This document shows, piece by piece, positions 2,977-29,133 of a stretch of DNA of 29,133 nucleotides. The translations under genes were made by a program, and so were the position numbers. The first letter of the stretch is position 1. Every line of letters begins with the position of its first letter. The notes beneath the pieces were generated by a model, which had not been told where the DNA came from, ran no database searches, and was given only the letters and a program-made list of their open reading frames with translations. Where the stretch lies: IMG/VR virus record IMGVR_UViG_2648501318_000010, positions 1 through 29,133 of that record; one strand, 5' to 3'. This DNA comes from a virus. Taxonomy: Duplodnaviria > Heunggongvirae > Uroviricota > Caudoviricetes.

Positions 2977-5707
<2,731 letters not shown>

Positions 5708-5773
5708 TTAATTAGAATAATTCGCATCGTGTTTGAACGGAATTTAACACTAGTCACTTGTTAAGGATTACCA

Positions 5774-8700
5774 ATGAACAAGCTATCTATGGGTGTGTTT
5801 CGCTGTTCAAGTGTCAGCGAAATATTGAAATACATTAGGGTAATAACATCTCACCGAGCGCCGATTAAATACGGCGTGGAAAAGGTGGAAGGCAAAAGCT
5901 ATGACCGACTGCGCCGGGAGGCGAATCAGAAGGCGATAGATTTGCTTAATTCGCTGGTGGACGGCGCGACACTGACAGATGAACAGCGCCAGATCCTGGC
6001 CGGGTACACTGGTGAAGGCGGCATTGGCGGGTCCGTCTCCGAATATTACACACCAAAGCCTATCGCTGAAGGTGTCTGGGAGATCATGAAGCTCTACGGC
6101 GCGGACGTAGGTAACACTCTGGAACCATCGGCGGGAACCGGCGTTTTTAATGAGACAAAACCGGTTGGTACGGTGATGACCGCGACTGAGATCAGCAGTG
6201 TTTCCGGTCGTATAAACCAGTTGTTACACCCGGAAGACAGCGTACAGATTTCCCCGTTCGAACAGCTGGCTATAAACACGCCTAACGATTCATTCGACCA
6301 TGTTGTGGGTAACGTTCCGTTCGGCGGTCGTGATAACACACGCAACATCGATAAGCCTTACGCAGAAGAAACGGACATGGGGTCTTACTTCATGCTCCGC
6401 ATGCTGGACAAGATAAAACCTGGCGGATTCATGTGTGTGATTGTGCCGCCGTCCATTGTTTCAGGTTCAAACATGAAGCGGTTACGCCTGCGCTTATCCC
6501 GTAAAGCTGAATTTCTTGGCGCTCACCGCTTGCCTACCGGTACTTTTGACGCAAACGGGACCAGTACAGTCGTTGATGTGGTGCTGATGCGCAAACATCC
6601 GGCAGAGATGGCTGAGAAAATCCCCCTGGTGGATGAAAGCACTCTCGAATCGGCAAATGTGCTTTGGCCAACGTTTATTTCTGGCAAGTGGTTTGAAAAG
6701 GACGGCCGCCGGTTTGTTCATGGCACCCAGGAAAAGGGCTTCCAGGGGCGTATTGAGGTTCGTGCCGACGGTCAGATTGATAACCAGGCTCTTAAAGCGA
6801 AGCTGATTCATCGTTTCGAAAGCCGTATCGACTGGTCTTTGCTCGATATGGCTGAACCGTCACCGACCGCAGACGTTGTTGGTGAAGGGGAAATGCGCCT
6901 GATTAATGGCGTATGGCAAAAATATGCTGGTGGTCGCTGGATTGAAGCTGATGCCGGGAAGGAACTTAAGATCGATGCTGCCAGTTATGGCGCGGATAGC
7001 TGGGAGGCTCTTCAGCGTAACCTGACTACAACAGAAGGCCGTCTCGGCATGACATTTACCCAGATGGCAAATGTCCGCGATAAGTACACCACATCAATCA
7101 GCGACGATATGGTGCAGCTGGTGGACTGGATTAACAGCCAGCCTGAAAAATACCGTGAACGCTTGTATCGCGGGGCGATGATTGGCCGGATGTTAATTGA
7201 ATATCAGGACATGAAGGCCGCCGGGCATAGTGCTGAACAAATCGAACAGCAGCGCCTTTCTCTGGTATCCCGTTTGCAGGCAGAGATTGACCGTTTTGGT
7301 AACCCCGGTCGCGGTCCGATAGCGAAATTGTCGGGGAGCGGTGCGCGCGCCTGGTTTGCTTTCCGTGGTGCGATTAAGCTGGATGGCACTATTTCTGACG
7401 AGCTGACAGGAAAGCTGGTTACGCATGATTCCAGCGCCAGTTATGACTCCACCAGCTATCAGGACACCCTGCGTTATCTCTATAGCGATCTTACCCGCGA
7501 TCCAATCCAGCTCGATGATTTCCGCTTTGCGTTTACCGGCGAACTGCCAGCCAGTGATGAAGAGTTGCTTAATTTATTGGCCAGCACCCCTGGTATTGCG
7601 GTTTCACCGTATGGCGGGATTGTTCCGTTTGCCCGCGCCACCAGCGGCGACATTAACGAGATAGTGGCTCCAAAACAGGAATTCCTTGCCACACTCCCCG
7701 ACGGTCCAGTAAAGAACAACGTCCTTAATCAGCTGGCAGCGATCGAAGAGAAGCGCATCAAGACGCCAGCAGAGAATATCCGCTTTAAGCTCAATAGCCG
7801 TTGGTTCGACCGCTCCGTCATTCTGGAGTTTTTGCAGGAAAACGGCTATCCGGATCTGCGCTATGTGCAGTCAGTGCAGCTGGAAGGCGACGAAATGGTT
7901 TCTGACACCTATCACGGTGGTGATGGTCTGTTCGTCGGGCACCGATACGGTGTCGTCCAGCGCAAGGATAAAGAAACAGGCGAGATCCGCTACGAGTGGG
8001 ACCGTAAATCAGGTGAAAACGCGACCGGGTTCCCGGCACAGCTGGAAAAGTATCTCAATGGTGCGCGTATCGGTGGCAAAGATAGCGCGACGGCGAACGG
8101 CTACCGCGAGCAGATGGCACTGCTTGAGGACCAGTTCAATAAGTGGATCAAGACGCACGATCGCTACGATGAGCTGGTTGCCAAATACAACGATGTGTTC
8201 AATAGCAATATCCCGTATGAACACTCTGGCGATCCGCTTGGGTTGAAGGGATTAAGCGGTAAGCGCCAGCCATTTGATTACCAGAATAGCGAGGTGCGCC
8301 GACTGTCCGAAGATGGGCGCGGCATCCTGGGCTTCGGCACCGGGCTGGGTAAAACCACGACCGCGCTGGCGCTTGAGGCGTTCAACTATGAGAACGGTCG
8401 CTCTACCCGTACTGCGTATGTAGTGCCTAAATCAGTGCTGGAAAATTGGTATTACGAAGCAAAAGAATTCCTGAGTGAAGAGGCATTCAGTAACTACTTG
8501 TTCGTCGGTCTTGATGTGCTGATGGATGGCGATCAGATTCGCCAGGTGCCGGTGCTCAATGAGAACGGTAAACCTGTTCTTGGTACTGATGGCACTCCAG
8601 TTATGCGCGATGCTCTTAAGCTGGCAGATGAAGCCACTATCACGGCGCGGATGAACGCGATCCCGCACTCAAACTACCGTGCAGTCGTGTTTACCAAAGA

Positions 8701-11700
8701 ACAATACGCCCGCATTCCGCTACGTGATGACACCGTAGATGAGCATGCACAAGACATGCTTTATGACTTCGTTGCCGCCGGGCGCGTAGCCAGCGCAATG
8801 GATTCCGACTCCCATCGTAAAGAGGCGGCGCGTCGCCGGGTATTGTCGGAGTATTCAGATACCGGTACCGAAAAAGCAGAGAAATATCCGTACTTTGAGG
8901 ATATGGGCTTCGATAGTGTGATCGCCGACGAAGGCCACAACTACCGCAATAGCTATAAAAATGGTCGCGAAGCGTCACAACTGGCCTATCTGCCCACCAG
9001 CGCGGTGGCGCAATCGGCGCGGGATATGGCAATCAAAAACGCGTACCTGATGAAAAAGAATGGCGGGCGCGGGCCGGTTCTCCTGACTGCAACGCCAGTC
9101 GTTAACACCCCGATCGATGCATACAACATGCTTTCTCATGTTCTGCCGAAGGAATACTGGCAGAAGATGGGGATCTACGGTCCTGATGACTTCGTTAAAT
9201 TCTTCGGCAAGACCAGGCTGGAAACGGTACAGAAAATCAGCGGTGAAGTTGAAGAAAAAATGGCGCTGGTGGGCTTTGAAAACCTTGATGCGCTGCGCGG
9301 TATATTCCATCGCTGGGTAACGCTTAAAACGGCGGAAGACGTTAAGGATACCGTGGAGATCCCGGAGCTGGACGAACACCAGCAGGATGCACCACTTACT
9401 GAAGAACAACTGGCGGCGTATGAAGAATTGCGTCAGCAGGCGGAAGCGGCGGCCAAAGCCAACAATGGCGTAACGACCTCGGTCAATGAAGACGGCGTGA
9501 TTGAGCACGAGAAAGCCCGTCCGATCTTCTCAATAATCAGGGATATGGACCGCGTATGTACTGACATGGACCTGTACTATCGCCGGATCACCTATCGTTT
9601 CCTGCCGGAGTACGCCGATGCGGTGCAGCAGCTGGCGGACAGTTTGCCTAAACAAGCCACCAGCGAAGACGACGACAGTGATGATTCAATCACGCAGCAA
9701 TCGCAATACTCCCTGATAGATAAGGGCGAGTTTATTCAGTTGCAGGTTCCGGAAGCGTTCGAGCAGGAAGTGAATAAGCGCCTGGCCAGGTTTGGCATTG
9801 ACGAACAGACCGTAACTCACCCCGTTACACCCAAATACGCGAAGCTGATCGCCACGCTGAAGGAGTTTTTCCCGGAAGGTAAGCAAATCATCTTCACGGA
9901 CGAAAAAACGCAGCACCAGAAGCTCAAGCGCATTATCTGCAATGCTCTTAACCTTGAACCTTCAAAGGTGGGGATCCTGAATGCTCAGACGGTTGCCGAG
10001 GCAGGTAAAACCGGTAAGAAACTGAAAGCGGTTAAACCGCCGAAAGAGTTACCGGATGAACCAACAGATGCACAGATAGCGAAATACAACGAGCAAATGG
10101 CTCTGTATGACGCCTATATCGCGCAGCAAAATGAAATGTCGTTGGGCGGTCTGGAAAAGATTGCAGCAGACTTCCAGGAGGGCCGGACTCCGATCATCAT
10201 CTGCAACAAAAAGGCAGAGGTGGGTATCAACCTGCATCGAGGAACGACGGATATCCACCACCTGACGTTGCCGTGGACTCCAGCCAGTATCGCACAACGT
10301 AACGGTCGCGGTGCCCGAGTTGGCTCCAACCGTGCAAGCGTTCGCGTTCACTACTACTGCGGCAAGGGTTCTTTCGATGAATACCGACTGAAGACGCTGA
10401 AGCGTAAAGCAGGCTGGATATCCGATATCCTCCGTTCAGATAAGTCAGAAATGGAGAACGCCGACGCCAACGATATGATCGAAATGCAGATGTATACCGC
10501 TAAGGATGATGGCGAACGTCTGGCAATGATGCAGGTTCAAATGGATAAGGCGAAAGCCGCGCAACGCGCTCGCCAGAAAGAACAGGCTACTATCGACCTT
10601 CAGAACTACATCAAGGCGCAGCACGCAGCTGGCGAGGATGTGGAGGTACTTACCGCTGAATTAGAGCGAAGCAAAGCGGAACTTGAAAAGACCACCGCCG
10701 AGGTAGCTAAATTCAAACAGGCGGTAATGGCCAAAGCAGCTGATAACGCAGACTGGAAAGCCCGCTGGGGTAGCGTCCATCACACAGACCGTACGTTGTT
10801 AGCACAGTATCGCGCGTCGTTGAAAAGCGCCATTCAGCGCAAGGCTAATATCTCTCAGGCCATCTCCCGCTATGAGAAATTATTGAACCGTACTCAGAAG
10901 GCCGCGACGGATATCAAACGCCTGCGCCCGCTGGTGGAGGATGCAATAAATAAAGGCATTCTGGATGTTGATCCTGATCTGGTTAACCATGCGAATGAGT
11001 TCCTTGTTATCGGCGATCGCTCATGGCGTGTAGGCCAATACTACGATTGTGCCGGTGATATCGTTCGCATTAAGTCGCTGGACTTCGACAGCCAGCGCGC
11101 AGACGTGGAGATCATCTTTATCTTCAAAGGCACCAAATCGGGTAACTGGGATGTGAAGACGCTGGATAAACAGGTGGATGTAACTCCCGATGAAGATGCT
11201 GTTATGCAGAAAATCAGTGGTGGCGTCTCCATCGCCGGGATTAACGACATCATTTCCTGTGACGATTTCTACCGTTTCCAGCAGCGCGGCATGATCAAAA
11301 TCACTGACTCGTACAGCGTTCAGACTACAGAGTCAGGCTATAGCATTGATTTTGTTGGTACCTATACGGCCCCACTGAAGCATGCGGTTTACCCGGATCG
11401 CCGTGACGGCGCGCTGAAGTCGTCAATTGCAAAATGGGTGCTTGGTATGATGTCGGAAGGGAATAACCGCCAGATCCGTTCGGCAGAAACATTCCTGGTT
11501 GAATTGTTTGGCTCCAATTATGGCGATGTAATCGCGTCATACGGAGATACGCTATCCCCTGAAGCAATTCAGGAGAAAATAGCGGATGCGATCGCAAAAA
11601 TGCCGGAGAAAACAAGCCAGGGGGCTACTCGTAACGGGGATTCTGAACTTGAGGTCACCAATGCCATTTTCGGTACCCATGAGTTCCGGGCGTCAGATTA

Positions 11701-12541
11701 TGAGATCACCACAGCACAGTTTGGCACCATTGGCATTTACAGCAATAAAGCCGAGATCAAGCAGGCAATGGACGCAGCAAGCGCGCGCATCGCAGCAGAA
11801 CGGGAAGCCAATCTGAATCATGCAGTCGCCGCACTGACTCAATCGTGGGTAACAGCAATCAGGGAGGCCGCCACCACAGGGAAAATCACACCTGCAATTG
11901 CGGATGTCGTAAACGACGGCTCTAAATTTATGGATGCCTATCAAATGGATGCGGTGCAGTTGCCATCAGCCTATGGCCAACTCAGCTATCGCATGACCTA
12001 CAACCTGGTATCAATGTTTTCCGACCTTGCCATCCTTGGGCTGGTGGATCTTAACGAGGTTACGCCGGAATTGCTCAGCATGCGCAAGAATCATGTGGAG
12101 ATATTGCAGAGAATTAACACGGTTCTTGCCGGGCGCACCGATGAAGAGAAACAGGCCGACGCTGATCGGATAAACCTGGCCCTTGGCAACATCACGGAGG
12201 AAGAAATTGCCGCCAGAAACGAGAAACAAGAAGAGTTATCATCAATACAGGGTGATGCCACCAGCATAGCTCAGTCTCTTGGTCTGAATTATCGCGTATC
12301 CACCGCCGACCTGAAGATGATGTACGCACCAAAATTCGCCGCTGGCGAGGTATTTGGGCTTCAGGAAGCCTCAGGCATGAAAGGCGTTCTTTTCCGTGCG
12401 AAAGACGCAATCAAGGCGAAATTCGGCGCTCGCTGGCTGCCAGCGAAGGCGAAGAACAGCGATTTCCCGGGTAACTGGTGGATTATCGAGACAAAACACA
12501 ACGTGGCGGACGTTCTGGCCGTCATCCAACAATACGCATAA
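5774..12541 (+). CDS. darB: DarB-type virion defence-against-restriction protein: N6-adenine methyltransferase domain fused to an SF2 DExH helicase domain
   Basis: 2255 aa, matching the size I recall for P1 DarB. AdoMet motif I (LEPSAGTGVF) and motif IV (VGNVPFGG) near the N-terminus; helicase Walker A (GFGTGLGKTT), DEGH box (VIADEGHNY), motif III (LLTATPV) and motif VI (QRNGRGARVG) in the middle of the protein. Confidence 0.85.
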   Translation: MNKLSMGVFRCSSVSEILKYIRVITSHRAPIKYGVEKVEGKSYDRLRREANQKAIDLLNSLVDGATLTDEQRQILAGYTGEGGIGGSVSEYYTPKPIAEGVWEIMKLYGADVGNTLEPSAGTGVFNETKPVGTVMTATEISSVSGRINQLLHPEDSVQISPFEQLAINTPNDSFDHVVGNVPFGGRDNTRNIDKPYAEETDMGSYFMLRMLDKIKPGGFMCVIVPPSIVSGSNMKRLRLRLSRKAEFLGAHRLPTGTFDANGTSTVVDVVLMRKHPAEMAEKIPLVDESTLESANVLWPTFISGKWFEKDGRRFVHGTQEKGFQGRIEVRADGQIDNQALKAKLIHRFESRIDWSLLDMAEPSPTADVVGEGEMRLINGVWQKYAGGRWIEADAGKELKIDAASYGADSWEALQRNLTTTEGRLGMTFTQMANVRDKYTTSISDDMVQLVDWINSQPEKYRERLYRGAMIGRMLIEYQDMKAAGHSAEQIEQQRLSLVSRLQAEIDRFGNPGRGPIAKLSGSGARAWFAFRGAIKLDGTISDELTGKLVTHDSSASYDSTSYQDTLRYLYSDLTRDPIQLDDFRFAFTGELPASDEELLNLLASTPGIAVSPYGGIVPFARATSGDINEIVAPKQEFLATLPDGPVKNNVLNQLAAIEEKRIKTPAENIRFKLNSRWFDRSVILEFLQENGYPDLRYVQSVQLEGDEMVSDTYHGGDGLFVGHRYGVVQRKDKETGEIRYEWDRKSGENATGFPAQLEKYLNGARIGGKDSATANGYREQMALLEDQFNKWIKTHDRYDELVAKYNDVFNSNIPYEHSGDPLGLKGLSGKRQPFDYQNSEVRRLSEDGRGILGFGTGLGKTTTALALEAFNYENGRSTRTAYVVPKSVLENWYYEAKEFLSEEAFSNYLFVGLDVLMDGDQIRQVPVLNENGKPVLGTDGTPVMRDALKLADEATITARMNAIPHSNYRAVVFTKEQYARIPLRDDTVDEHAQDMLYDFVAAGRVASAMDSDSHRKEAARRRVLSEYSDTGTEKAEKYPYFEDMGFDSVIADEGHNYRNSYKNGREASQLAYLPTSAVAQSARDMAIKNAYLMKKNGGRGPVLLTATPVVNTPIDAYNMLSHVLPKEYWQKMGIYGPDDFVKFFGKTRLETVQKISGEVEEKMALVGFENLDALRGIFHRWVTLKTAEDVKDTVEIPELDEHQQDAPLTEEQLAAYEELRQQAEAAAKANNGVTTSVNEDGVIEHEKARPIFSIIRDMDRVCTDMDLYYRRITYRFLPEYADAVQQLADSLPKQATSEDDDSDDSITQQSQYSLIDKGEFIQLQVPEAFEQEVNKRLARFGIDEQTVTHPVTPKYAKLIATLKEFFPEGKQIIFTDEKTQHQKLKRIICNALNLEPSKVGILNAQTVAEAGKTGKKLKAVKPPKELPDEPTDAQIAKYNEQMALYDAYIAQQNEMSLGGLEKIAADFQEGRTPIIICNKKAEVGINLHRGTTDIHHLTLPWTPASIAQRNGRGARVGSNRASVRVHYYCGKGSFDEYRLKTLKRKAGWISDILRSDKSEMENADANDMIEMQMYTAKDDGERLAMMQVQMDKAKAAQRARQKEQATIDLQNYIKAQHAAGEDVEVLTAELERSKAELEKTTAEVAKFKQAVMAKAADNADWKARWGSVHHTDRTLLAQYRASLKSAIQRKANISQAISRYEKLLNRTQKAATDIKRLRPLVEDAINKGILDVDPDLVNHANEFLVIGDRSWRVGQYYDCAGDIVRIKSLDFDSQRADVEIIFIFKGTKSGNWDVKTLDKQVDVTPDEDAVMQKISGGVSIAGINDIISCDDFYRFQQRGMIKITDSYSVQTTESGYSIDFVGTYTAPLKHAVYPDRRDGALKSSIAKWVLGMMSEGNNRQIRSAETFLVELFGSNYGDVIASYGDTLSPEAIQEKIADAIAKMPEKTSQGATRNGDSELEVTNAIFGTHEFRASDYEITTAQFGTIGIYSNKAEIKQAMDAASARIAAEREANLNHAVAALTQSWVTAIREAATTGKITPAIADVVNDGSKFMDAYQMDAVQLPSAYGQLSYRMTYNLVSMFSDLAILGLVDLNEVTPELLSMRKNHVEILQRINTVLAGRTDEEKQADADRINLALGNITEEEIAARNEKQEELSSIQGDATSIAQSLGLNYRVSTADLKMMYAPKFAAGEVFGLQEASGMKGVLFRAKDAIKAKFGARWLPAKAKNSDFPGNWWIIETKHNVADVLAVIQQYA

Positions 12542-12574
12542 CAGGAGCGCCCGGTTCGCCGGGCGTCGCATAAT

Positions 12575-13015
12575 ATGGCCACACTATCTGATACAATAAA
12601 ACCGAATAAAACATATCTTGAGGCGGTACTCCGTACAGCGTTGTTAGGAAAGACAGAAGACGAATACGTTGATTTCTTCCTGTCAGGGCTACGCGGGCGA
12701 TTACTGAAAAATCCCCGCCTGTACCGCAGCTATGGTCCATACTGGCCGGAAATTAAAAAATTATTACTGGAGCGCGGTTATGGTAATTTCGGTCGTCTCG
12801 TTGACCGTGACGTTCGCAAAATTTACCGTTATGACCGCCCGGCGCTGACGCTCATAGCCGCGACGCTCTACAGCCAGGAGCGTTTTGATAATGGTCAGAT
12901 ATACTCAGCCTGGCATTTACTGCCAGTACCTGAAGAGGTTGACGACCAGGACTATGAGTTTGAGTCTTACGATTTGGAAGTTGAAGCCTTAGCACAGGCT
13001 GGAGAGAAAACTTGA
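12575..13015 (+). CDS. ulx: Hypothetical protein at the position of P1 ulx (upstream of lxc)
   Basis: 146 aa ORF immediately after darB whose stop overlaps the TTG start of the next ORF (TTGA). Assignment by synteny only. Confidence 0.45.
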   Translation: MATLSDTIKPNKTYLEAVLRTALLGKTEDEYVDFFLSGLRGRLLKNPRLYRSYGPYWPEIKKLLLERGYGNFGRLVDRDVRKIYRYDRPALTLIAATLYSQERFDNGQIYSAWHLLPVPEEVDDQDYEFESYDLEVEALAQAGEKT

Positions 13016-13260
13016 AAAAGCGATACTACACAGTAAAGCATGGGACGCTACGAGCATTACAAGAGTTTGCTGATAAGCATAACGTTGAGGTGCGCAGGGA
13101 GGGGGGAAGTAAAGCTCTGCGCATGTACCGTCCGGACGGGAAATGGCGTACGGTCGTCGATTTCAAAACTAACAGCGTTCCCCAGGGCGTCCGCGACCGG
13201 GCATTCGAAGAATGGGAGCAGATCATCATAGATAACGCATTGCTTCTGAATGCTGATTGA
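13012..13260 (+). CDS. lxc: Lxc/Bof-like modulator of C1 repressor action
   Basis: 82 aa ORF with a TTG start; P1 bof/lxc is recalled as an 82-codon gene with a TTG initiation codon, located next to darB/ulx. Confidence 0.55.
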   Translation: MKKRYYTVKHGTLRALQEFADKHNVEVRREGGSKALRMYRPDGKWRTVVDFKTNSVPQGVRDRAFEEWEQIIIDNALLLNAD

Positions 13261-13290
13261 CTCATTAACATTTAGGAATCATAGAATTAC

Positions 13291-13315
13291 AGGAAGAGGA
13301 TTAGCACCTCTTCCT
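13291..13315. terminator. Hairpin between convergent lxc and the YaaW-like gene (possible bidirectional terminator)
   Basis: 9-bp stem AGGAAGAGG/CCTCTTCCT with an 8-nt loop; flanking T content is modest. Confidence 0.3.
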
Positions 13316-13335
13316 TGATGGATGGAGTTATAATA

Positions 13336-14088
13336 TCACAAGGTAATATCGCTGTCTTTAATATTATTATTGACTTTCGCCCTTAGTACAGCAACTTGAA
13401 TAACAGCAGGAATTGTTACTCGATAAGCAGTTCCTCCCACATCTACAATGGTCCATGCGGCTGTTATAGCCCAACCAATTGGGCCTGTTAAAATAGATAA
13501 TGCTTTTACGAGTATTTGATTACCTGCGAGTGTTAAACCGCGTCCAATTAAAATTTTTAGTAAAAGATTCGCAAATTTAAGAGTTACCTGATAAGATCTG
13601 AAACCGCCGGCCCTGAAAATATATTGGAAGGCAGATAGAACTGCCTCAGGAGTAAATCTTGTAACTTCATCCAATCCAAGTTCCATGGCAAAAACTTTTA
13701 TATCTTCGGATGACATGTTATCTAGAGAGTCGCTGAGAATTTTTAATAGAAGATTTTGTTCAATAACCTCTATTCGGCTCTTGGCATTGAAATTAACCTT
13801 TAGCTTATTGCATACATCAATGAGAATTTCTCTGTAGCAGACCCCTTTACCACCACGCAAGAGAGTTGCTATGGTATTTCCACCATAACATTGAATTTCA
13901 GCAGCAATTTCTCTCCAATATACGCTATGTCTTGGTGCAAATTCCTTATATTGTCGATTGTTAGATAACTCTTCAGTCCATCTTTTTTTGCCATCGTTAT
14001 CATAAATCAATAGGTTAACTAAATCATCAAGATCACGGTCGCTACATTTAGCTAGGAATTCAAGATCGCTGTCTTTTCTGTATGCCAT
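13336..14088 (-). CDS. YaaW-like protein (DUF3944 N-terminal region plus UPF0174-type C-terminal region), function unknown
   Basis: 250 aa with a GGAG RBS 7 nt upstream of the ATG. The N-terminal DSDLEFLAKCS motif and C-terminal GTAYRVTIPAVIQVAVLR motif resemble E. coli YaaW as I recall it. The C-terminal third is hydrophobic and the coding region is AT-rich. Confidence 0.55.
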   Translation of the reverse strand: MAYRKDSDLEFLAKCSDRDLDDLVNLLIYDNDGKKRWTEELSNNRQYKEFAPRHSVYWREIAAEIQCYGGNTIATLLRGGKGVCYREILIDVCNKLKVNFNAKSRIEVIEQNLLLKILSDSLDNMSSEDIKVFAMELGLDEVTRFTPEAVLSAFQYIFRAGGFRSYQVTLKFANLLLKILIGRGLTLAGNQILVKALSILTGPIGWAITAAWTIVDVGGTAYRVTIPAVIQVAVLRAKVNNNIKDSDITL

Positions 14089-14103
14089 ATGTACACTCCA
14101 TTT

Positions 14104-14577
14104 TTAAATCAAGTCATCTCTTAGATTTTTAGCTACAACCATATAAAATGTTGCATATTTCATAATAATATCATCAAATTCTTTGTCTAAAACACTTCCA
14201 AGTTTCCCGTCTATAAATTTCCTCATAACGTTATTCATTCCATGTGTTTTAGCAAATATATTTTTTCCGTCTATTAAATTATCATCCTCAACAGGAGAAT
14301 AAGATACACTCCATCCACATTTGATTAAGTTTTTTGCCGATTTTGTGGAAATATCAAGAAGTATGGTTGCATCAATATTAATGATTTTACAGAATTTCAT
14401 CATATTCTCTACAGAGAGAGAGGACTTACCATTTTCAATTTTTCCCCAGCCGGCACTTGTTATCCCAAGGCCAGATGCAATGTCTGATTGAGTAACACCA
14501 TGCTTCTCGCGAAAATCGCGAATATGGAAAGCCAATATAGTTAAATAGGATGTTTTCATATGGGTAATGATACTCAC
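14104..14577 (-). CDS. XRE-family helix-turn-helix protein with a C-terminal domain of unknown function
   Basis: HTH_XRE signature (GVTQSDIASGLGITSAGWGKIENGKSSLSVENMMKFCKI) in the N-terminal half. Its stop is 15 nt upstream of the YaaW-like ATG, so the two form an operon. The true start may be the ATG at 14559 (the track start at 14577 is GTG); neither has a clear SD. Confidence 0.6.
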   Translation of the reverse strand: MSIITHMKTSYLTILAFHIRDFREKHGVTQSDIASGLGITSAGWGKIENGKSSLSVENMMKFCKIINIDATILLDISTKSAKNLIKCGWSVSYSPVEDDNLIDGKNIFAKTHGMNNVMRKFIDGKLGSVLDKEFDDIIMKYATFYMVVAKNLRDDLI

Positions 14578-14677
14578 AGTTTATAAAACTTCAAGTATTT
14601 TATTGCGATAATCGTATGCGAGTCCACTTCTTGGTTGAAGATTGAACTTCGGTAATGTGCTGAAGAGACATTTAATC

Positions 14678-14699
14678 ATGCCCGGCATCAACCGGGCAT
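14678..14699 (-). terminator. Hairpin just downstream of the ant-like gene
   Basis: 8-bp stem ATGCCCGG/CCGGGCAT with a 6-nt loop, 8 nt after the ant stop; the following stretch is only moderately U-rich. Confidence 0.35.
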
Positions 14700-14706
14700 T
14701 CTTCCA

Positions 14707-15825
14707 TTATTCAGCCGCCACCGGTTTTAACAAGCCAGCATCGAGCAGTTTACGCGTCAACCACTGCTGGCCTTTACCCGTTAATTGAGGCGTCAACCGT
14801 ATCTGGTAGCCATCTTCATCATCCAGCACCACTTCTTTCACCGTGAAATATCCCGCATTGATGTACTGCTGGAACGGCACATTTTTACGTCCACCGGACG
14901 CTATCAGGATGCCGTTCTCCCGTAACCAGGCAAACAGCGCGTTTTGCTTAAGACCAACAACCTTTGCAAAATTCCCAATCAGGATCCCTTTAGCTACTGA
15001 TACCCGGTCGGCAAAATCGACCTTAGGGGCTGCGGCCACCAGCTGCTGATTTAGCTGGTGGGCTTTCTGTTCCAGAAGCTGCTTTTGTTCAGCCAGTTCG
15101 GCAGCCAGGCGCAGAGCTTCTGGAAGCGTCTGGGGGATTGCAACCGGTTGCTGTTCTTTTTGCCGGAAGTAGCTGTCTTCCAGTTTTTCAAAGAATGCCC
15201 ATGCCTGATCGGTTTCGAGCATTTTAGCGTGGCGGGCTGCGCCGCGTTCTGTCCAGAGGGTGAGTGAGCGAACATTGCGAGCAATTTTTACAGAGTAGTT
15301 TAAAGCTACTCTGTGCTTCAACTCGCGCAATGATTCTCCTTCAACTTTGAAAAAGTGCTTCCCTTCAACAAAGCGTACTTTGTTCTCATGATGATTTTGG
15401 CGAATACGGATTGTTTCTGTCCCATACCCTCTAGCAAGAGTCTCGGTTGTCACTACACGCACTCCCTGCCATTCCAGAACGGGAATTTCATCAGACTGAT
15501 TCTGAACAACCACCAGCTCCGATTCCTGAACTGAAGGTGCATAAATTTTTTCTGATTTAACGTTAGTTGCTTTCATTCTGTGTGCCTCCTTGCGTGCTTC
15601 GGCTGCGGCGGTTGCGTAATTCAGATGACCCTGTTCGAGCAGGTATTCGCGGATATCAGACAACAGGATACGGTGAACCGCGTTCTTGTCCTTTCTCCGG
15701 TAAAGTTGTTTGGTGATCATGAAGTAGTTGGCAATAACGCCTGGTATATCCCTGGTACTGATACAGGCAGTGTGCTGTTCAATTGCCTCGATCATCTCTT
15801 CACGGGTGACTAATGACGTTCTCAT
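14707..15825 (-). CDS. ant: Phage antirepressor (Ant-like; KilA-N/ORF6N-type domain plus KilAC/ANT C-terminal domain)
   Basis: 372 aa. The central region resembles the ORF6N/KilA-N DNA-binding domain and the C-terminus (FAKVVGLKQNALFAWLRENGIL...) the antirepressor KilAC domain. It is preceded by a translationally coupled small ORF and a c4-like RNA region, as in P1 immI. Confidence 0.7.
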   Translation of the reverse strand: MRTSLVTREEMIEAIEQHTACISTRDIPGVIANYFMITKQLYRRKDKNAVHRILLSDIREYLLEQGHLNYATAAAEARKEAHRMKATNVKSEKIYAPSVQESELVVVQNQSDEIPVLEWQGVRVVTTETLARGYGTETIRIRQNHHENKVRFVEGKHFFKVEGESLRELKHRVALNYSVKIARNVRSLTLWTERGAARHAKMLETDQAWAFFEKLEDSYFRQKEQQPVAIPQTLPEALRLAAELAEQKQLLEQKAHQLNQQLVAAAPKVDFADRVSVAKGILIGNFAKVVGLKQNALFAWLRENGILIASGGRKNVPFQQYINAGYFTVKEVVLDDEDGYQIRLTPQLTGKGQQWLTRKLLDAGLLKPVAAE

Positions 15826-16043
15826 AGTCCCTCCTGAACAGAAGCGTTAACAGGGAGGCACCAGTAACTGAGAGAATTGCGCGAGTCAGTAGAAAAGCGT
15901 GCGGAGAAAATGCAGGGAGCATCCGGAAGCTGAGAACGTGCCTCATCTTCTGTTGTTGCGATAACGAAGTGATAGTGACGTTTCTGGCAGGAGTAAAAGC
16001 GCCAGATAAATTCAGGGCGTGCGCAAGGATTGGCATTAACCAT
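15822..16043 (-). CDS. icd: Small icd-like ORF translationally coupled to ant
   Basis: 73 codons from the ATG at 16043, with GAGG 8 nt upstream. Its TGA stop overlaps the ant ATG (ATGA). In P1 immI a small icd ORF overlaps the ant start and is the target of c4 antisense RNA. Confidence 0.5.
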   Translation of the reverse strand: MVNANPCARPEFIWRFYSCQKRHYHFVIATTEDEARSQLPDAPCIFSARFSTDSRNSLSYWCLPVNASVQEGL

Positions 16044-16094
16044 AGTTACGGCCTCGTAAGTTGATAAAACAACCTGCGACCCGCTGCTAAACAG

Positions 16095-16200
16095 GTGGCA
16101 GGACGTGACGGGGTTAGCAGACTGGCACTTACGAAACCAGCAGGCCGAAGCCTCCCCATCACGCCCCACCATAATTCGGGCGTAACGTGGTTATACGGAC
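16095..16200 (-). ncRNA. c4: c4-like antisense repressor RNA (boundaries approximate)
   Basis: On the minus strand the segment CGGCCT-(8 nt)-CGTAAGT (plus-strand about 16127..16147) is exactly complementary to ACTTACGAGGCCG, which covers the icd-like RBS (plus-strand about 16049..16061). It sits inside a GC-rich region that can fold into stem-loops and lies downstream of the C1 operator pair. This is the a'/b'-a2/b2 arrangement described for P1 c4 RNA. Confidence 0.4.
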
Positions 16201-16344
16201 ATGAAAATACCGCAATATCGGATATCTGCGGTTGTCCGCGTAAGTATTCAGGCTGCTAAACCCGGTCGCAGAATTTGCTACGACGGCATGAATATAAGCC
16301 TGAACGGTAAGGAGATCAATAGGGCTATGCGCAATGGTAGGATA

Positions 16345-16377
16345 TTTGCTCTAATAAATCAAATTTATTAGAGCAAT
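16345..16377. promoter_or_regulatory. Overlapping inverted pair of C1-repressor operators (Op51-like)
   Basis: TTTGCTCTAATAAATCA (16345..16361) and, on the other strand, a perfect ATTGCTCTAATAAATTT (16361..16377). The pair lies upstream of the c4/icd/ant unit and about 100 bp upstream of the divergent lipoprotein gene. Confidence 0.65.
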
Positions 16378-16476
16378 GAGGGTTGTGTGTTATTTTTGCT
16401 CATGTTGAGCGTCATGGAGAATTGAAATTTGTTTAAAACCTTGGCAACCTACTGTTTTTAATGCACTTAATAAGGT

Positions 16477-16794
16477 ATGCAGATGAAACTAGGTAATTTG
16501 TTAGCCGCAGCTATCGTTTTAACGATAACTGCATGTGCCGGAAAAGCTGAAAAAGACCCGCAATATGTAGCCGCAGAGAAATGTGCAGATTTAGTTATCA
16601 CAAAATCAAAAGCTCTGGCAGAGAAAGGCATCAGTGGAAATTACGAGTTTACATCAAAACTGCGCACAACTTCGACGTCTGATGGTCCATTCACATCAAC
16701 ACAAATCAGAGGCATTCCTTATGCAACCTCTACGTTTCTTGATAACGGTAATGAGGGGAGTGCCTGGAGACAATGTATGGGGCAGCTATTGTAA
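16477..16794 (+). CDS. Small secreted lipoprotein, function unknown
   Basis: 105 aa; N-terminal signal peptide with a lipobox (LTITAC, Cys at about residue 20); no homology recognised. Confidence 0.55.
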   Translation: MQMKLGNLLAAAIVLTITACAGKAEKDPQYVAAEKCADLVITKSKALAEKGISGNYEFTSKLRTTSTSDGPFTSTQIRGIPYATSTFLDNGNEGSAWRQCMGQLL

Positions 16795-16827
16795 GAATGA
16801 GTTGTTCCCCAAAAGGATTTGGGGATG

Positions 16828-17496
16828 TTAAAAATAGTTTCCCTTCCCAGTTAAGATTCCGTGTGGAACGCTTTTTTCCGCAAGTCTCTGTGTGCCGCGA
16901 ATTATGTTAATCAGAGGGCTTAGTAACGATGGTTCCTGGCGTGCCTCAACTTCTCCAGCCATTGCCCTGATGTAGTCGGAGCTTGCAACGTTGTTGTATT
17001 CCGTTGCGAAGCAGCATAACAACGTCAGAACGTGCTCTGTCGTTATTTCGCTCCAGTTGATGTTGAAAAATTCATCGCCTTTTTTGTCATGTTCGGAATC
17101 GAAGATGCTTTGGTGAAGGATGTATTTGCCGGATTCCTTGCGCGGTAACTTGATCGCTTTCTGGCGTTCCAGTTCCTTGTAAATCTGCATTGCTTCAATC
17201 AGTACCGGTCTGCCGTTCATGAAGGGATCACGCAACCTTACACGCTGGCCAACTCGACCGGTAATAAAGCTGTTTTCCTCTTCCACCAGCACGATAAAAC
17301 CCTTTTCCTCTTTTTCTCGCAATTCGCGCAGCAGCTGGAGTTCCATATCGCGGCGGCGTTCAGGGTAGCTGGTCCGCTCAGCCATTATCAGCTCATTGTT
17401 GATCCATGCGGCAGTCATTGACGCCGGTTTGCCGACGCTCATCGAAACAACGCATATTTTCTTATCCATAGCGCCCCTACAAAAAAGAAAAGCCAC
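16828..17496 (-). CDS. Hypothetical protein at the position of P1 mat, downstream of ref
   Basis: ORF downstream of ref on the same strand; the likely start is the ATG at 17469 (GGGG 5-8 nt upstream). An AACAAGTGA-like late-promoter motif lies upstream. No recognisable domain; assignment by synteny only. Confidence 0.45.
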   Translation of the reverse strand: MAFLFCRGAMDKKICVVSMSVGKPASMTAAWINNELIMAERTSYPERRRDMELQLLRELREKEEKGFIVLVEEENSFITGRVGQRVRLRDPFMNGRPVLIEAMQIYKELERQKAIKLPRKESGKYILHQSIFDSEHDKKGDEFFNINWSEITTEHVLTLLCCFATEYNNVASSDYIRAMAGEVEARQEPSLLSPLINIIRGTQRLAEKSVPHGILTGKGNYF

Positions 17497-17664
17497 CAGC
17501 GGCGGCTTAGCAATACAACTGAAGGTAGCGCCCGGTACTCAGACTGTGCCGTCCATGGAATATTTGAAAAGGGATCCATCCGTACCGGGCGTGTGATGAT
17601 TCTGACTGAAGTCACTTGTCAGTTGTCAGTTGTCAATCATTTATCATTAAAAATAATATATTTA

Positions 17665-18225
17665 TTAGTGCATGATGTTTGCCATCTCATAGGCGTCAGC
17701 CAGTAACTCCATCTCTGACTTGTTCAGCAGGGTGAATTCTTTCTTGCCTCCAACCACACCATCGGCATGAACAGGGACCAGCCAGGGGTATTTTGCTCTT
17801 ACTTCAGCCGGTGCTGCATGCTGGTGGTGCCATCTACAAAGTGGCAATTGCTTTTTATGACAACCCGGCGCGGTACGACCGGAGATATGGTGCAGAGACA
17901 CCTCTTCAGATATTACTCCATGCATGTAGCAGGCAATGCAGGGGAGAGTGCCAAGAGCATTGGCGATGGTCCGTTCCTCCGCCGTCGGTGTTCGCCCCTT
18001 CAAGCCACGAGATTTTATTTTTACCGCACTTTTCCGCGTTTTGCTGGCTGGTGGGCGCTCTTTCTGTTTAGCGATACGGCGGTCGATAGAATCCCGCATT
18101 TTCTGATATTGCGATTCTCGCCAGGCGGGGTCAGCCAACTTTTCCCGTTGCCGAGCGATCGCTCGTTCTCTGGCTGCCTTCTGCCACTCGCGGCGCTGTT
18201 CAAGTTTTTGTTCGATTGTTTTCAT
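17665..18225 (-). CDS. ref: Ref recombination-enhancement function (RecA-dependent HNH-type nuclease)
   Basis: 186 aa from the ATG at 18225 (MKTIEQKLEQRREWQ...); basic disordered N-terminus and HNH-like core (CIACYMHG...HHISGR...CRWHHQ), as I recall for P1 Ref. The ORF track extends 26 codons further upstream. Confidence 0.85.
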   Translation of the reverse strand: MKTIEQKLEQRREWQKAARERAIARQREKLADPAWRESQYQKMRDSIDRRIAKQKERPPASKTRKSAVKIKSRGLKGRTPTAEERTIANALGTLPCIACYMHGVISEEVSLHHISGRTAPGCHKKQLPLCRWHHQHAAPAEVRAKYPWLVPVHADGVVGGKKEFTLLNKSEMELLADAYEMANIMH

Positions 18226-18230
18226 ATGGC

Positions 18231-18256
18231 AAAAAAAAGGCGGCCTAATGGCCGCC
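18231..18256 (-). terminator. Hairpin plus U-run on the minus strand between cra and ref
   Basis: Minus strand reads GGCGGCC-ATTA-GGCCGCC followed by eight T, ending 5 nt before the ref ATG. Confidence 0.45.
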
Positions 18257-18323
18257 AATGATGTCAAGGAGTGAAGTAATGGCAACGTCTTCGTAGTTGA
18301 CAAAAACTGCGGCTAAATTATAG

Positions 18324-18340
18324 CAATCAATTAGAGCAAT
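18324..18340 (-). promoter_or_regulatory. C1 operator-like site upstream of ref
   Basis: Minus strand ATTGCTCTAATTGATTG (11-nt core match), about 100 nt upstream of the ref ATG; ref is known to be C1-controlled in P1. Confidence 0.5.
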
Positions 18341-18446
18341 GGTAGATATTTTGTTTCTCGCGAATCACATTTTTTCACTTCAGTACCTGTGTGCTATACT
18401 CCTTCTTGATTGATTGGATGCGGAATACAAACCCGCTCTTTTGTGC

Positions 18447-18474
18447 AGCCTGGCTCCTTGCCAGGCTTTTTTTT
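18447..18474 (+). terminator. Plus-strand rho-independent terminator overlapping the cra 3' end
   Basis: Stem AGCCTGGC/GCCAGGCT with a short loop followed by a run of about eight T. Confidence 0.4.
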
Positions 18475-18784
18475 ATTTCATCATGGAAGCTGTTAACGCT
18501 TTGGACCTTGCTGAACTGATTGAGAGGGCTTTGTCAACGTGCCCCAAAAATTCGCCAAACTCAGACATCACTTTAGCAAAACCGCGCCGTGCTTCTTCCT
18601 CGGTGGCATTCATCACGAAATGTTCAGCACCACGCATACTTTTGACAGGGAACGCAACGGATATTGAATCAATATCAGGCATTCTATCGCTCAGCTTTAC
18701 AGTGACAATGACGGCTGGCGACTGAATATTAGTGCTTACAGACAGCACTACATATTTTCCGTCGATTTTGAAATCCTTTCTCAT
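18473..18784 (-). CDS. cra: Cre-associated small protein (P1 cra position)
   Basis: 103-aa ORF immediately downstream of cre on the same strand, with a C1 operator-like site between them; assignment by synteny only. Confidence 0.5.
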   Translation of the reverse strand: MRKDFKIDGKYVVLSVSTNIQSPAVIVTVKLSDRMPDIDSISVAFPVKSMRGAEHFVMNATEEEARRGFAKVMSEFGEFLGHVDKALSISSARSKALTASMMK

Positions 18785-28651: not shown

Positions 28652-28891
28652 CTATTCTGTTTTCTGATATGCCGGATCGTTCCCTTTTGGCAACTGGAGG
28701 CTTAACTGCCGGTAGTGCCGTAGACGTTCCATGAAATAGGTGCGCAGATTCTCTGGTTGCTCGCGGGCTACCTGTTCAGCTATGACAGGTATGTTCAATC
28801 GCTCTTTGTAGGCAACCCCCCTGGCAGCCAGGTCAACGTTAACTTTATTCCTTTCTTCCTGGCTTTTGGCTGCTATGTTCCATTCGTTCAT
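28652..28891 (-). CDS. hot: Hot, homolog of the DNA polymerase III theta subunit (HolE-like)
   Basis: About 79 aa from the internal ATG at 28891; the [32 protein letters not shown] motif closely resembles E. coli HolE. The ORF track extends 21 codons upstream. Confidence 0.7.
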
Positions 28892-29133
28892 CGATAGGAA
28901 TTTAAATCCCCAAAAGACTAAAAAAGCACCACAAAACGGATATTTCTTCAACACCCCTTGTGCACCATATGAGCGGAAACGACTATTAAACAGGATGACA
29001 CTGATTGATACAGGGTATGAATGGCGGTTTTTTGCTCCGTTTCCGGTAAAATGGACGCAACTTCCCCTCTGCGGCTCTCAGCCGCACACCTGCTGTCGTG
29101 CCAGTCGCTCATGCATCAGGACCAGCTCTGCCA

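Follow-up and report, generated by a model that had tools for sequence, protein, structure and literature searches.

Between lxc and mat, phage P1 carries res and mod, the genes of the type III restriction–modification (R-M) system EcoP1I, and Salmonella phage SJ46 carries CapRel(SJ46), a fused toxin–antitoxin with experimentally proven anti-phage defence activity (Zhang et al. 2022, PMC9712102). When the Escherichia coli plasmid pSvP1 was sequenced, five hot-spots of variation relative to P1 were described (Venturini et al. 2019, Sci Rep, PMC6906374); the first, RD-1, corresponds to P1 3,469–9,749, res-mod(IS5), and in pSvP1 to 3,476–7,042, with seven open reading frames (ORFs), a set of five that contains homologues of icd-ant1/2 and a pair that contains a putative transcriptional regulator; the same paper also noted that other elements have an additional ant in the pacB–c1 interval (PMC6906374). 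A Salmonella survey, too, counts the type III R-M region among the variable ones. Separately, 17 jukA operons of the Juk ('jumbo phage killer') system, of which JukA is the sensor, were tested by Li et al. 2022, and the Escherichia 'jukA;HTH-XRE' operon Jo6 protected Pseudomonas aeruginosa specifically against phiKZ-like phages, with JukA alone sufficient and the Xre gene dispensable (10.1101/2022.09.17.508391). Here we analyse a 29,133-nucleotide stretch of viral DNA (IMG/VR record IMGVR_UViG_2648501318_000010, the whole of which we call the window) that contains the pSvP1 island between lxc and mat. This hotspot and this island are already known, having been published in 2019 as RD-1 of pSvP1; added here are the identification of JukA, which is tied to an allele already tested, the anatomy of an extra immI module, a comparison of C4 codes, the stepwise assembly of the island and a census of cargo in the slot. 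We put at roughly 85% the probability that lxc–mat is an accessory-gene hotspot used mostly for anti-phage defence and immunity, in which unrelated cassettes are exchanged through recombination in the flanks and whose filling in pSvP1 took at least two steps.

The window belongs to a P1-like phage-plasmid: positions 1–20301 align with bases 20302–1 of pSvP1 (NZ_MN510446.1) at 99.995% identity, and plasmid NZ_CP122822.1 matches positions 246–28891 at 99.96–100%. Its genes run darB, ulx, lxc, island, mat, ref, c8, cre, cra, lox, coi, c1, pacB and pacA, which for the backbone is the order of P1 (NC_005856) in reverse. The island and its neighbours are placed as follows.

5774–12541: darB

12575–13015: ulx

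13012–13260, plus strand: lxc (C1 modulator), the conserved left flank, in which homology to every compared relative stops at 13258–13272

13259–16826: the whole cargo island (3,568 bp), that is, RD-1 of pSvP1, in place of P1 3470–9751 (res, mod, IS5)

16828–17469, minus strand: mat (213-aa form), the conserved right flank

Alignment to P1 by BLASTN yielded a left block (window 12000–13258 = P1 11010–9752, 98.3% identity) and a right block (window 16827–18500 = P1 3469–1802, 97.1% identity), separated in P1 by a 6,282-bp counterpart of the island with res, mod and IS5. The left breakpoint falls inside the lxc stop codon and the right one lies 1 base from the mat stop codon; both (13258/13259 = P1 9752 and 16826/16827 = P1 3469) agree with the published pSvP1 RD-1 coordinates. 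An initial annotation made from the sequence had described the flanking genes (darB-ulx-lxc on one side and the mat-position gene, ref, cra, cre and loxP on the other) as following the P1 order, had drawn the island at 13261–16827 and had seen in it no ORF as large as res or mod; the order is that of NC_005856 reversed, the BLASTN bounds (13259–16826) differ from the drawn ones by 1–2 bases, and the biggest island ORF encodes 372 aa. A tblastn search of the window with the P1 proteins Res and Mod (970 and 653 aa) gave no match in the island and only chance matches elsewhere (E ≥ 0.067), BLASTN and tblastn revealed no res/mod remnants in the island, and a Pfam scan of the island found no R-M domains. 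The content proposed in that annotation also holds: a c4/icd/ant-like module (Rfam C4 and c4-a1b1, the NCBIfam Icd-like model and Pfam ANT/KilAC), a lipoprotein gene and an operon of a helix-turn-helix (HTH) gene and a YaaW-like gene (Pfam HTH_3 and DUF3944). Its concern that reference P1 might carry the same genes here is answered by the P1 slot itself, which holds res, mod and IS5, and P1 immI does lie elsewhere, adjoining kilA-repL at P1 48.1–49.7 kb. Because the island occurs in four independent complete plasmids at 95.6–100% identity, it is not an assembly artefact.

To place the island among the other occupants of the slot, we compared 80 IMG/VR loci found with Lxc, 73 of which contain both flanks. 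Across these 73 lxc–mat loci the slot ranges from 30 bp to 5.1 kb and holds at least 13 sequence types between the same flanks, bearing out the earlier suggestion of cargo swapping at a recombination hotspot. The cargo was distributed as follows.

SIR2/ThsA-like: 13 loci

DUF2971 (PDC-S31): 10 loci

CapRel-like (PDC-S33): 9 loci

GNAT: 8 loci

Empty: 8 loci

res/mod: 7 loci

PIN_12: 6 loci

YaaC with a deoxyribosyltransferase-like protein: 4 loci

AraC with EAL: 4 loci

pSvP1 type: 3 loci

Another lipoprotein: 1 locus

At least six cargo types match models of defence or candidate-defence systems (type III R-M, SIR2/ThsA-like, PDC-S31, PDC-S33/CapRel-like, PDC-S34/PIN and JukA). Among named elements, the slot contains res/mod in P1, nothing in RCS47 (39 bp), one PIN-like ORF in JL22, an HTH gene and an ORF in Ro157c2YLVW, a small RelA/SpoT set in 673R5, the 373-aa RelA/SpoT protein CapRel(SJ46) in SJ46, and, in p95JB1A and pLH50-c-C, an extra immI module (hereafter immI-2) and the lipoprotein gene alone.

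The lxc-proximal part of the window's island differs in composition from the backbone, with 31–38% GC relative to approximately 50%, and consists of a two-gene cassette.

13259–14678: Xre-JukA cassette, 1,420 bp, 31–38% GC

13291–13315: hairpin AGGAAGAGG-ATTAGCA-CCTCTTCCT, read from the sequence, between the convergent lxc and jukA, probably a two-way terminator

13336–14088, minus strand: JukA homologue (YaaW family), 250 aa, with DUF3944 and a Cbp3-like domain

14104–14559, minus strand: Xre-family HTH gene, 151 aa from its ATG (Pfam HTH_3), with the reading frame open further upstream to a GTG at 14577

The two genes, xre upstream, are separated by 15 bp, which points to an operon. The 250-aa protein matches the PADLOC JukA model over residues 2–242 (E = 3 × 10−66) and two Pfam families (PF13099, DUF3944, E = 7 × 10−14; PF03981, Ubiq_cyt_C_chap, Cbp3-like, E = 3.7 × 10−8); a search of PDB sequences with it returned no match, and no JukB is present alongside it in the island. 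Relationship to the tested Jo6 allele was measured via the matching natural locus L020 instead of the full Jo6 sequence: the first 369 nt of the Jo6 operon, available from the supplement, are 100% identical to L020, the JukA of which (P0002) is 73% identical to that of the window, and the Xre of which is 71% identical (87/123 against Jo6 Xre). Cassette copies with at least 99% identity were recovered from 7 PLSDB plasmids and from 8 of 5,426 complete E. coli genomes, always on plasmids of P1 size (96–139 kb) and never on a chromosome, and wherever their context was inspected they occupied the lxc–mat slot. By analogy with the tested homologue, the island Xre-JukA pair is likely an anti-jumbo-phage defence operon, which would shield the lysogen against jumbo phages that form a nucleus; in it, JukA would be a sensor sufficient alone and Xre a dispensable regulator.

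The strongest competing explanation for this pair, although an unlikely one, is that it has no anti-phage role and comprises either a regulator with a chaperone-like or housekeeping protein or else an addiction module. One of the Pfam matches is indeed to a cytochrome bc1 chaperone domain, the Xre protein weakly resembles the antitoxins HipB and HigA, and the function of the pair in E. coli is read from sequence; however, the PADLOC JukA match spans the full length, the architecture is that of a tested defence operon at 71–73% identity, the slot is otherwise filled with defence genes, and the cassette at ≥99% identity is confined to P1-like plasmids. As a separate observation, L020 itself (4528–5753) places a Jo6-type operon at the darA/lydB/cin hotspot, beside a HicB-like gene and an IS605-type TnpB, such that Juk alleles are found in two different P1 hotspots.

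How cargo enters the slot is reflected in its junctions. Left junctions fall within 13258–13272 in all nine comparisons, and right junctions spread over 16826–16960, within the mat 3′ end, with homology to the window resuming at 16873 in RCS47, 16899 in JL22, 16946 in MH422554 and 16960 in Ro157c2YLVW. This pattern fits homologous exchange in the conserved flanks combined with selection for an intact lxc, directly after whose stop codon every cargo type brings its own hairpin. Between lxc and mat, p95JB1A and pLH50-c-C contain only the equivalent of window 14679–16826, with 16 bp where the window has the 1,420-bp Xre-JukA cassette. Assembly of the island was stepwise, in two steps or more: an older one that brought the immI module and the divergent lipoprotein gene, and a younger one in which the low-GC 1.4-kb Xre-JukA operon was inserted at the lxc edge. 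Alongside these junctions, the approximately 130 nt at the mat 3′ end (window 16826–16960) differ among elements, and the Mat C-terminus changes along with the cargo.

A dedicated site-specific or transpositional mechanism targeting the end of lxc seems to us improbable, somewhat more so than a non-defence role for the Xre-JukA pair. Such a mechanism would accommodate the start of all cargo types within approximately 14 nt of the lxc stop codon, the addition of the Xre-JukA block at that same edge, and the exact start of extra immI cassettes at the C1 operator in several slots, where short conserved sequences might guide insertion. However, no transposase or integrase, terminal repeat or target-site duplication was found in 13150–16950; the island carries no recombinase, terminal inverted repeats or att-like repeats, and the flanking repeats for which a dot-plot had been proposed in the initial annotation did not materialize, in that a search of island and cassette edges for repeats or att-like sequences returned only short (11–24 nt), mostly imperfect matches that do not stand out from chance. 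The right junctions are, moreover, scattered over approximately 130 nt, and selection for an intact lxc would give the same sharp left edge. It is more improbable still that the island is decaying debris, without selected function, left after loss of res/mod: pSvP1 does contain many insertion sequence (IS) elements and deletions, and a later insertion (IS1 or IS26-mcr-3.5) has disrupted this island, truncating ant′, in LC511659 and CP064027, but the five main ORFs and all immI regulatory elements are preserved, and plasmids of porcine, bovine and human origin from several continents keep the island 99–100% conserved.

The older part of the island contains, in the same order and register as P1 and P7 immI (by alignment to the annotated P1 and P7 sequences), every element of an immunity module.

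14679 to approximately 16377: immI-2 cassette, with C1 operator, promoters, a1/b1, c4, a2/b2, icd′ and ant1′

16345–16377: C1 operator, with a perfect site at 16361–16377 on the minus strand

16291–16363, minus strand: tandem promoters at the positions of P1 P51a (P2c4) and P51b (P1c4), placed by alignment to P1, their hexamers partly diverged

16238–16297, minus strand: upstream C4 targets a1 (16253–16259) and b1 (16238–16245), Rfam RF03163 at 54.6 bits (16245–16297)

16094–16170, minus strand: c4 antisense RNA gene, Rfam RF01695 at 70.8 bits (16091–16176; gathering score 45)

16054–16090, minus strand: C4 targets b2 (16054–16061, ACTTACGA, abutting the icd Shine–Dalgarno sequence) and a2 (16084–16090, TTAGCAG)

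15822–16043, minus strand: icd′, 73 aa, 62/73 identical to P1 Icd

14707–15825, minus strand: ant1′, 372 aa, Ant1-like at the N-terminus, with ORF6N in the centre and KilAC at the C-terminus

Both Rfam matches exceed their gathering scores, the Icd-like NCBIfam model matches at E = 5.8 × 10−13, and icd′ and ant1′ overlap by 4 bp, the same as in P1. The window holds 8 operator-like sites relative to 0.16 expected by chance, and the sole perfect match to ATTGCTCTAATAAATTT in all 29 kb is the one at 16361–16377 (minus strand), which together with 16345–16361 forms a perfect 14-nt inverted repeat. Judged by this repeat, the immI-2 operator looks bivalent, unlike the monovalent Oc4 of P1; the corresponding operator of p95JB1A and pLH50-c-C is degenerate in its second half. 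The loops of the island C4 (a′ = CTGCTAA, b′ = CGTAAGT) can pair at both target sites, a (TTAGCAG) with a′ and b (ACTTACG) with b′. By analogy, we infer that immI-2 works like P1 immI: C1 would bind the operator at 16345–16377, the transcript would be processed to C4 RNA, and base-pairing of the C4 loops a′ and b′ to a2 and b2 would cover the icd ribosome-binding site, blocking the translationally coupled icd-ant1′/ant2′; where C4 was absent or mismatched, antirepressor would be made and C1 inactivated.

The antirepressor itself is a chimera. Overall, Ant′ is 55–56% identical to Ant1, with approximately 65% identity at the N-terminus and approximately 93% at the KilAC end, but the ORF6N centre is not in Ant1, and its DNA is approximately 72% identical to roi/antB of Shiga toxin (Stx) phages. 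Relative to the Ant of P1 and P7, the centre of the island Ant′ has been swapped for an ORF6N domain resembling lambdoid Roi/AntB. Among RD-1 alleles, conservation is lowest in this same centre (54–70% nucleotide identity), and the in-frame ant2′ start (M84, 15576) and its AAGGAGG Shine–Dalgarno sequence are conserved. No match to Ant′ was found in a search of PDB sequences.

Relocation of immI from its normal site into the res/mod slot, the least probable of the alternatives, would explain the homology of the island module to P1 c4-icd-ant (78–84% nucleotide identity) and would suit a plasmid as heavily rearranged by IS elements as pSvP1, but it is already refuted by the canonical c4-icd-ant1/2 that both pSvP1 and CP122822 retain beside kilA-repL, and it is further contradicted by the different centre of the island Ant′ and by the three such modules of p95JB1A. 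The island immI is an extra copy and not a relocated one, and it lies between lxc and mat instead of between sim (or a lipoprotein gene) and kilA-repL. The island c4 does not differ from the c4 that this plasmid lineage has at the canonical site; more broadly, the a1b1-c4 stretches of the two copies are 96–100% identical, with identity down to 31–68% in the adjacent ant, which suggests gene conversion or selection for a common code. With an identical C4 in both copies, both antirepressor operons fall under one RNA specificity. The contribution of the cassette would then be a second Ant with a different centre (ORF6N) and extra C4 dosage.

Comparison among elements revealed that changes in C4 loops and targets are compensatory across P1, P7, pSvP1, 673R5 and p95JB1A, as seen in the b′/b pairs.

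P1: CACTAAC / GTTAGTG

P7 and RCS47: CACAATC / GATTGTG

673R5: CATTCGT / ACGAATG

p95JB1A RD-1: CATGTAC / GTACATG

This window: CGTAAGT / ACTTACG

The CGTAAGT code sits at the canonical site in 19 of the 21 IMG/VR contigs that bear it, including SJ46. As a general rule, agreement in C4 code between an extra immI and the resident one was considered and rejected: it is true for pSvP1 and CP122822 and false for p95JB1A, 673R5 and RCS47; in the latter two, the module at c1-pacB has its own diverged C4. The extra ant module at c1-pacB (in RCS47, JL22, 673R5 and pTZ20_1P) resembles that of the island in its icd′-ant′, which is 90–97% identical to window 14674–16016, in its C1-operator control and in having its own C4, but differs in its slot, in its diverged C4 scaffold with other loops and targets, and in an isrK-like element upstream. 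In modules with the diverged scaffold (L026 907–985, L028 28687–28764 and L027 35753–35831), an isrK match (RF01394, 58–61 bits) is located between the C1 operator and c4.

Further copies were encountered in several genomes. Plasmid p95JB1A (CP021336) has three c4-icd-ant modules (canonical, c1-pacB and lxc–mat; L027 35875–37326, L028 28790–30268 and L015 604–2067) with three different C4 codes; the UMNF18 plasmid (L059 13718–15383) has, beyond its RD-1 cassette, an inverted RD-1-like c4(CATGTAC)-icd-ant′ cassette that replaces ref, corresponds to window 17674–18232 and shows homology beginning exactly at the C1 operator; and Ro157c2YLVW (L013 4122–4253) has an operator-a1b1 fragment near ref. 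We tentatively raise the possibility, which we do not favour on a handful of genomes with at most three cassettes each, that P1-like elements have a family of mobile, self-contained c4-icd-ant cassettes, each headed by a C1 operator and bearing its own code, and stack them at four or more fixed backbone sites (canonical, lxc–mat, c1-pacB and the site of ref). Such a set would amount to combinatorial immunity and anti-immunity among competing elements of this kind; in the pSvP1 lineage the lxc–mat C4 would have been homogenized with the canonical one by gene conversion, and the swapped, fast-diverging Ant centre might be aimed at other repressors.

The remaining gene of the island is transcribed away from the c4 promoter region.

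16477–16794, plus strand: small lipoprotein gene, 105 aa, lipobox ITAC

Its family is an orphan, with 11 unnamed E. coli proteins among 5.8 billion proteins searched and an assignment to phrog_16031 (unknown function); the protein has no Pfam, NCBIfam or PADLOC match, and tblastn of phage genomes found none. The equivalent position beside immI is occupied by upf50.5 in P7 and by sim in P1 (envelope/exclusion genes), and from this position one might guess at an envelope or exclusion role. On the F plasmid (L019, the F′ of NEB Turbo), positions 3998–4516 (compared with window 16399–16916) contain a copy of the lipoprotein gene with approximately 90% identity and, beside it, an approximately 88-bp remnant of the P1 mat 3′ end, between a hok/srnB-like gene and the finO region. 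Together, the two sequences mark an old exchange of F with a P1-like element.

Several considerations weigh against the reading of lxc–mat as a hotspot for defence and immunity cassettes exchanged through its flanks. First, the functions of the island genes in pSvP1 itself are assigned by homology. Second, Jo6 was tested in P. aeruginosa against phiKZ-like phages only, and at 73% identity the target range may differ. Third, the putative antirepressor Ant′ may not bind C1, since its centre differs from that of Ant1/2. Fourth, a promoter and terminator scan of the window gave 10 sites relative to 8.6 expected, which is not above chance, so the transcription units are drawn from homology with P1 only; scan sites were used as evidence only where they coincide with P1-annotated ones, as does the P51b-like site. 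Finally, the left junction is very sharp (13258–13272 in 9 of 9 comparisons), and a site-preferring mechanism could also account for it.

Elsewhere in the window, an apparent frameshift in mat (222 aa, relative to 250 aa in P1) was considered and rejected, 213 aa being the family norm (PHROG 1837 at full length, and the annotations of RCS47 and SJ46). A P7-type porin gene, nmpC/ompC (residual ORF 229–1236), which is intact in the sister plasmid CP122822, is interrupted here by an IS10 copy whose end occupies positions 1–245. At the other end, collinearity with CP122822 stops at 28891 and the final 250 bases (28884–29133) match a segment immediately downstream of the annotated IS91-family transposase gene of that plasmid, as fits the ISEc84-mediated rearrangements reported for pSvP1.

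Together, these results suggest that the slot is a natural swap-in site for defence and immunity genes of P1-like phage-plasmids, which are found in several percent of E. coli, and that listing its cargo is a cheap route to new anti-phage systems: it has already yielded CapRel(SJ46) and EcoP1I, and uncharacterized cargo types include DUF2971, PIN_12, YaaC with the NDT-like protein, and GNAT. For pSvP1, we predict that the porcine enterotoxigenic E. coli host would resist nucleus-forming jumbo phages, which would be relevant to phage therapy, and that superinfection immunity would be altered via the second antirepressor module.

Set beside the described systems, the window's island shares with P1 and P7 immI all regulatory elements and a C4 scaffold identical outside the loops, and differs in its b′ loop (CGTAAGT here, CACTAAC in P1 and CACAATC in P7) and in being an additional copy in RD-1 instead of beside kilA-repL. 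EcoP1I occupies the same lxc–mat slot as an accessory defence but has no sequence or domain similarity to the island, and its gene orientation differs. CapRel(SJ46) lies in exactly this slot as well, demonstrating that it carries a working anti-phage system, although its RelA/SpoT-family protein and mechanism are unrelated to those of the island. Like the window operon, Jo6 has Xre followed by JukA (151 and 250 aa) on a P1-like element, but it sits beside darA and is a different allele from the one between lxc and mat. Finally, the published RD-1 of pSvP1 is the same DNA (99.995% identical to the window), described without the identification of JukA (which was described in 2022) and without the analyses given here of c4 with its target sites, of the C1 operator, of the chimeric Ant and of the stepwise assembly.

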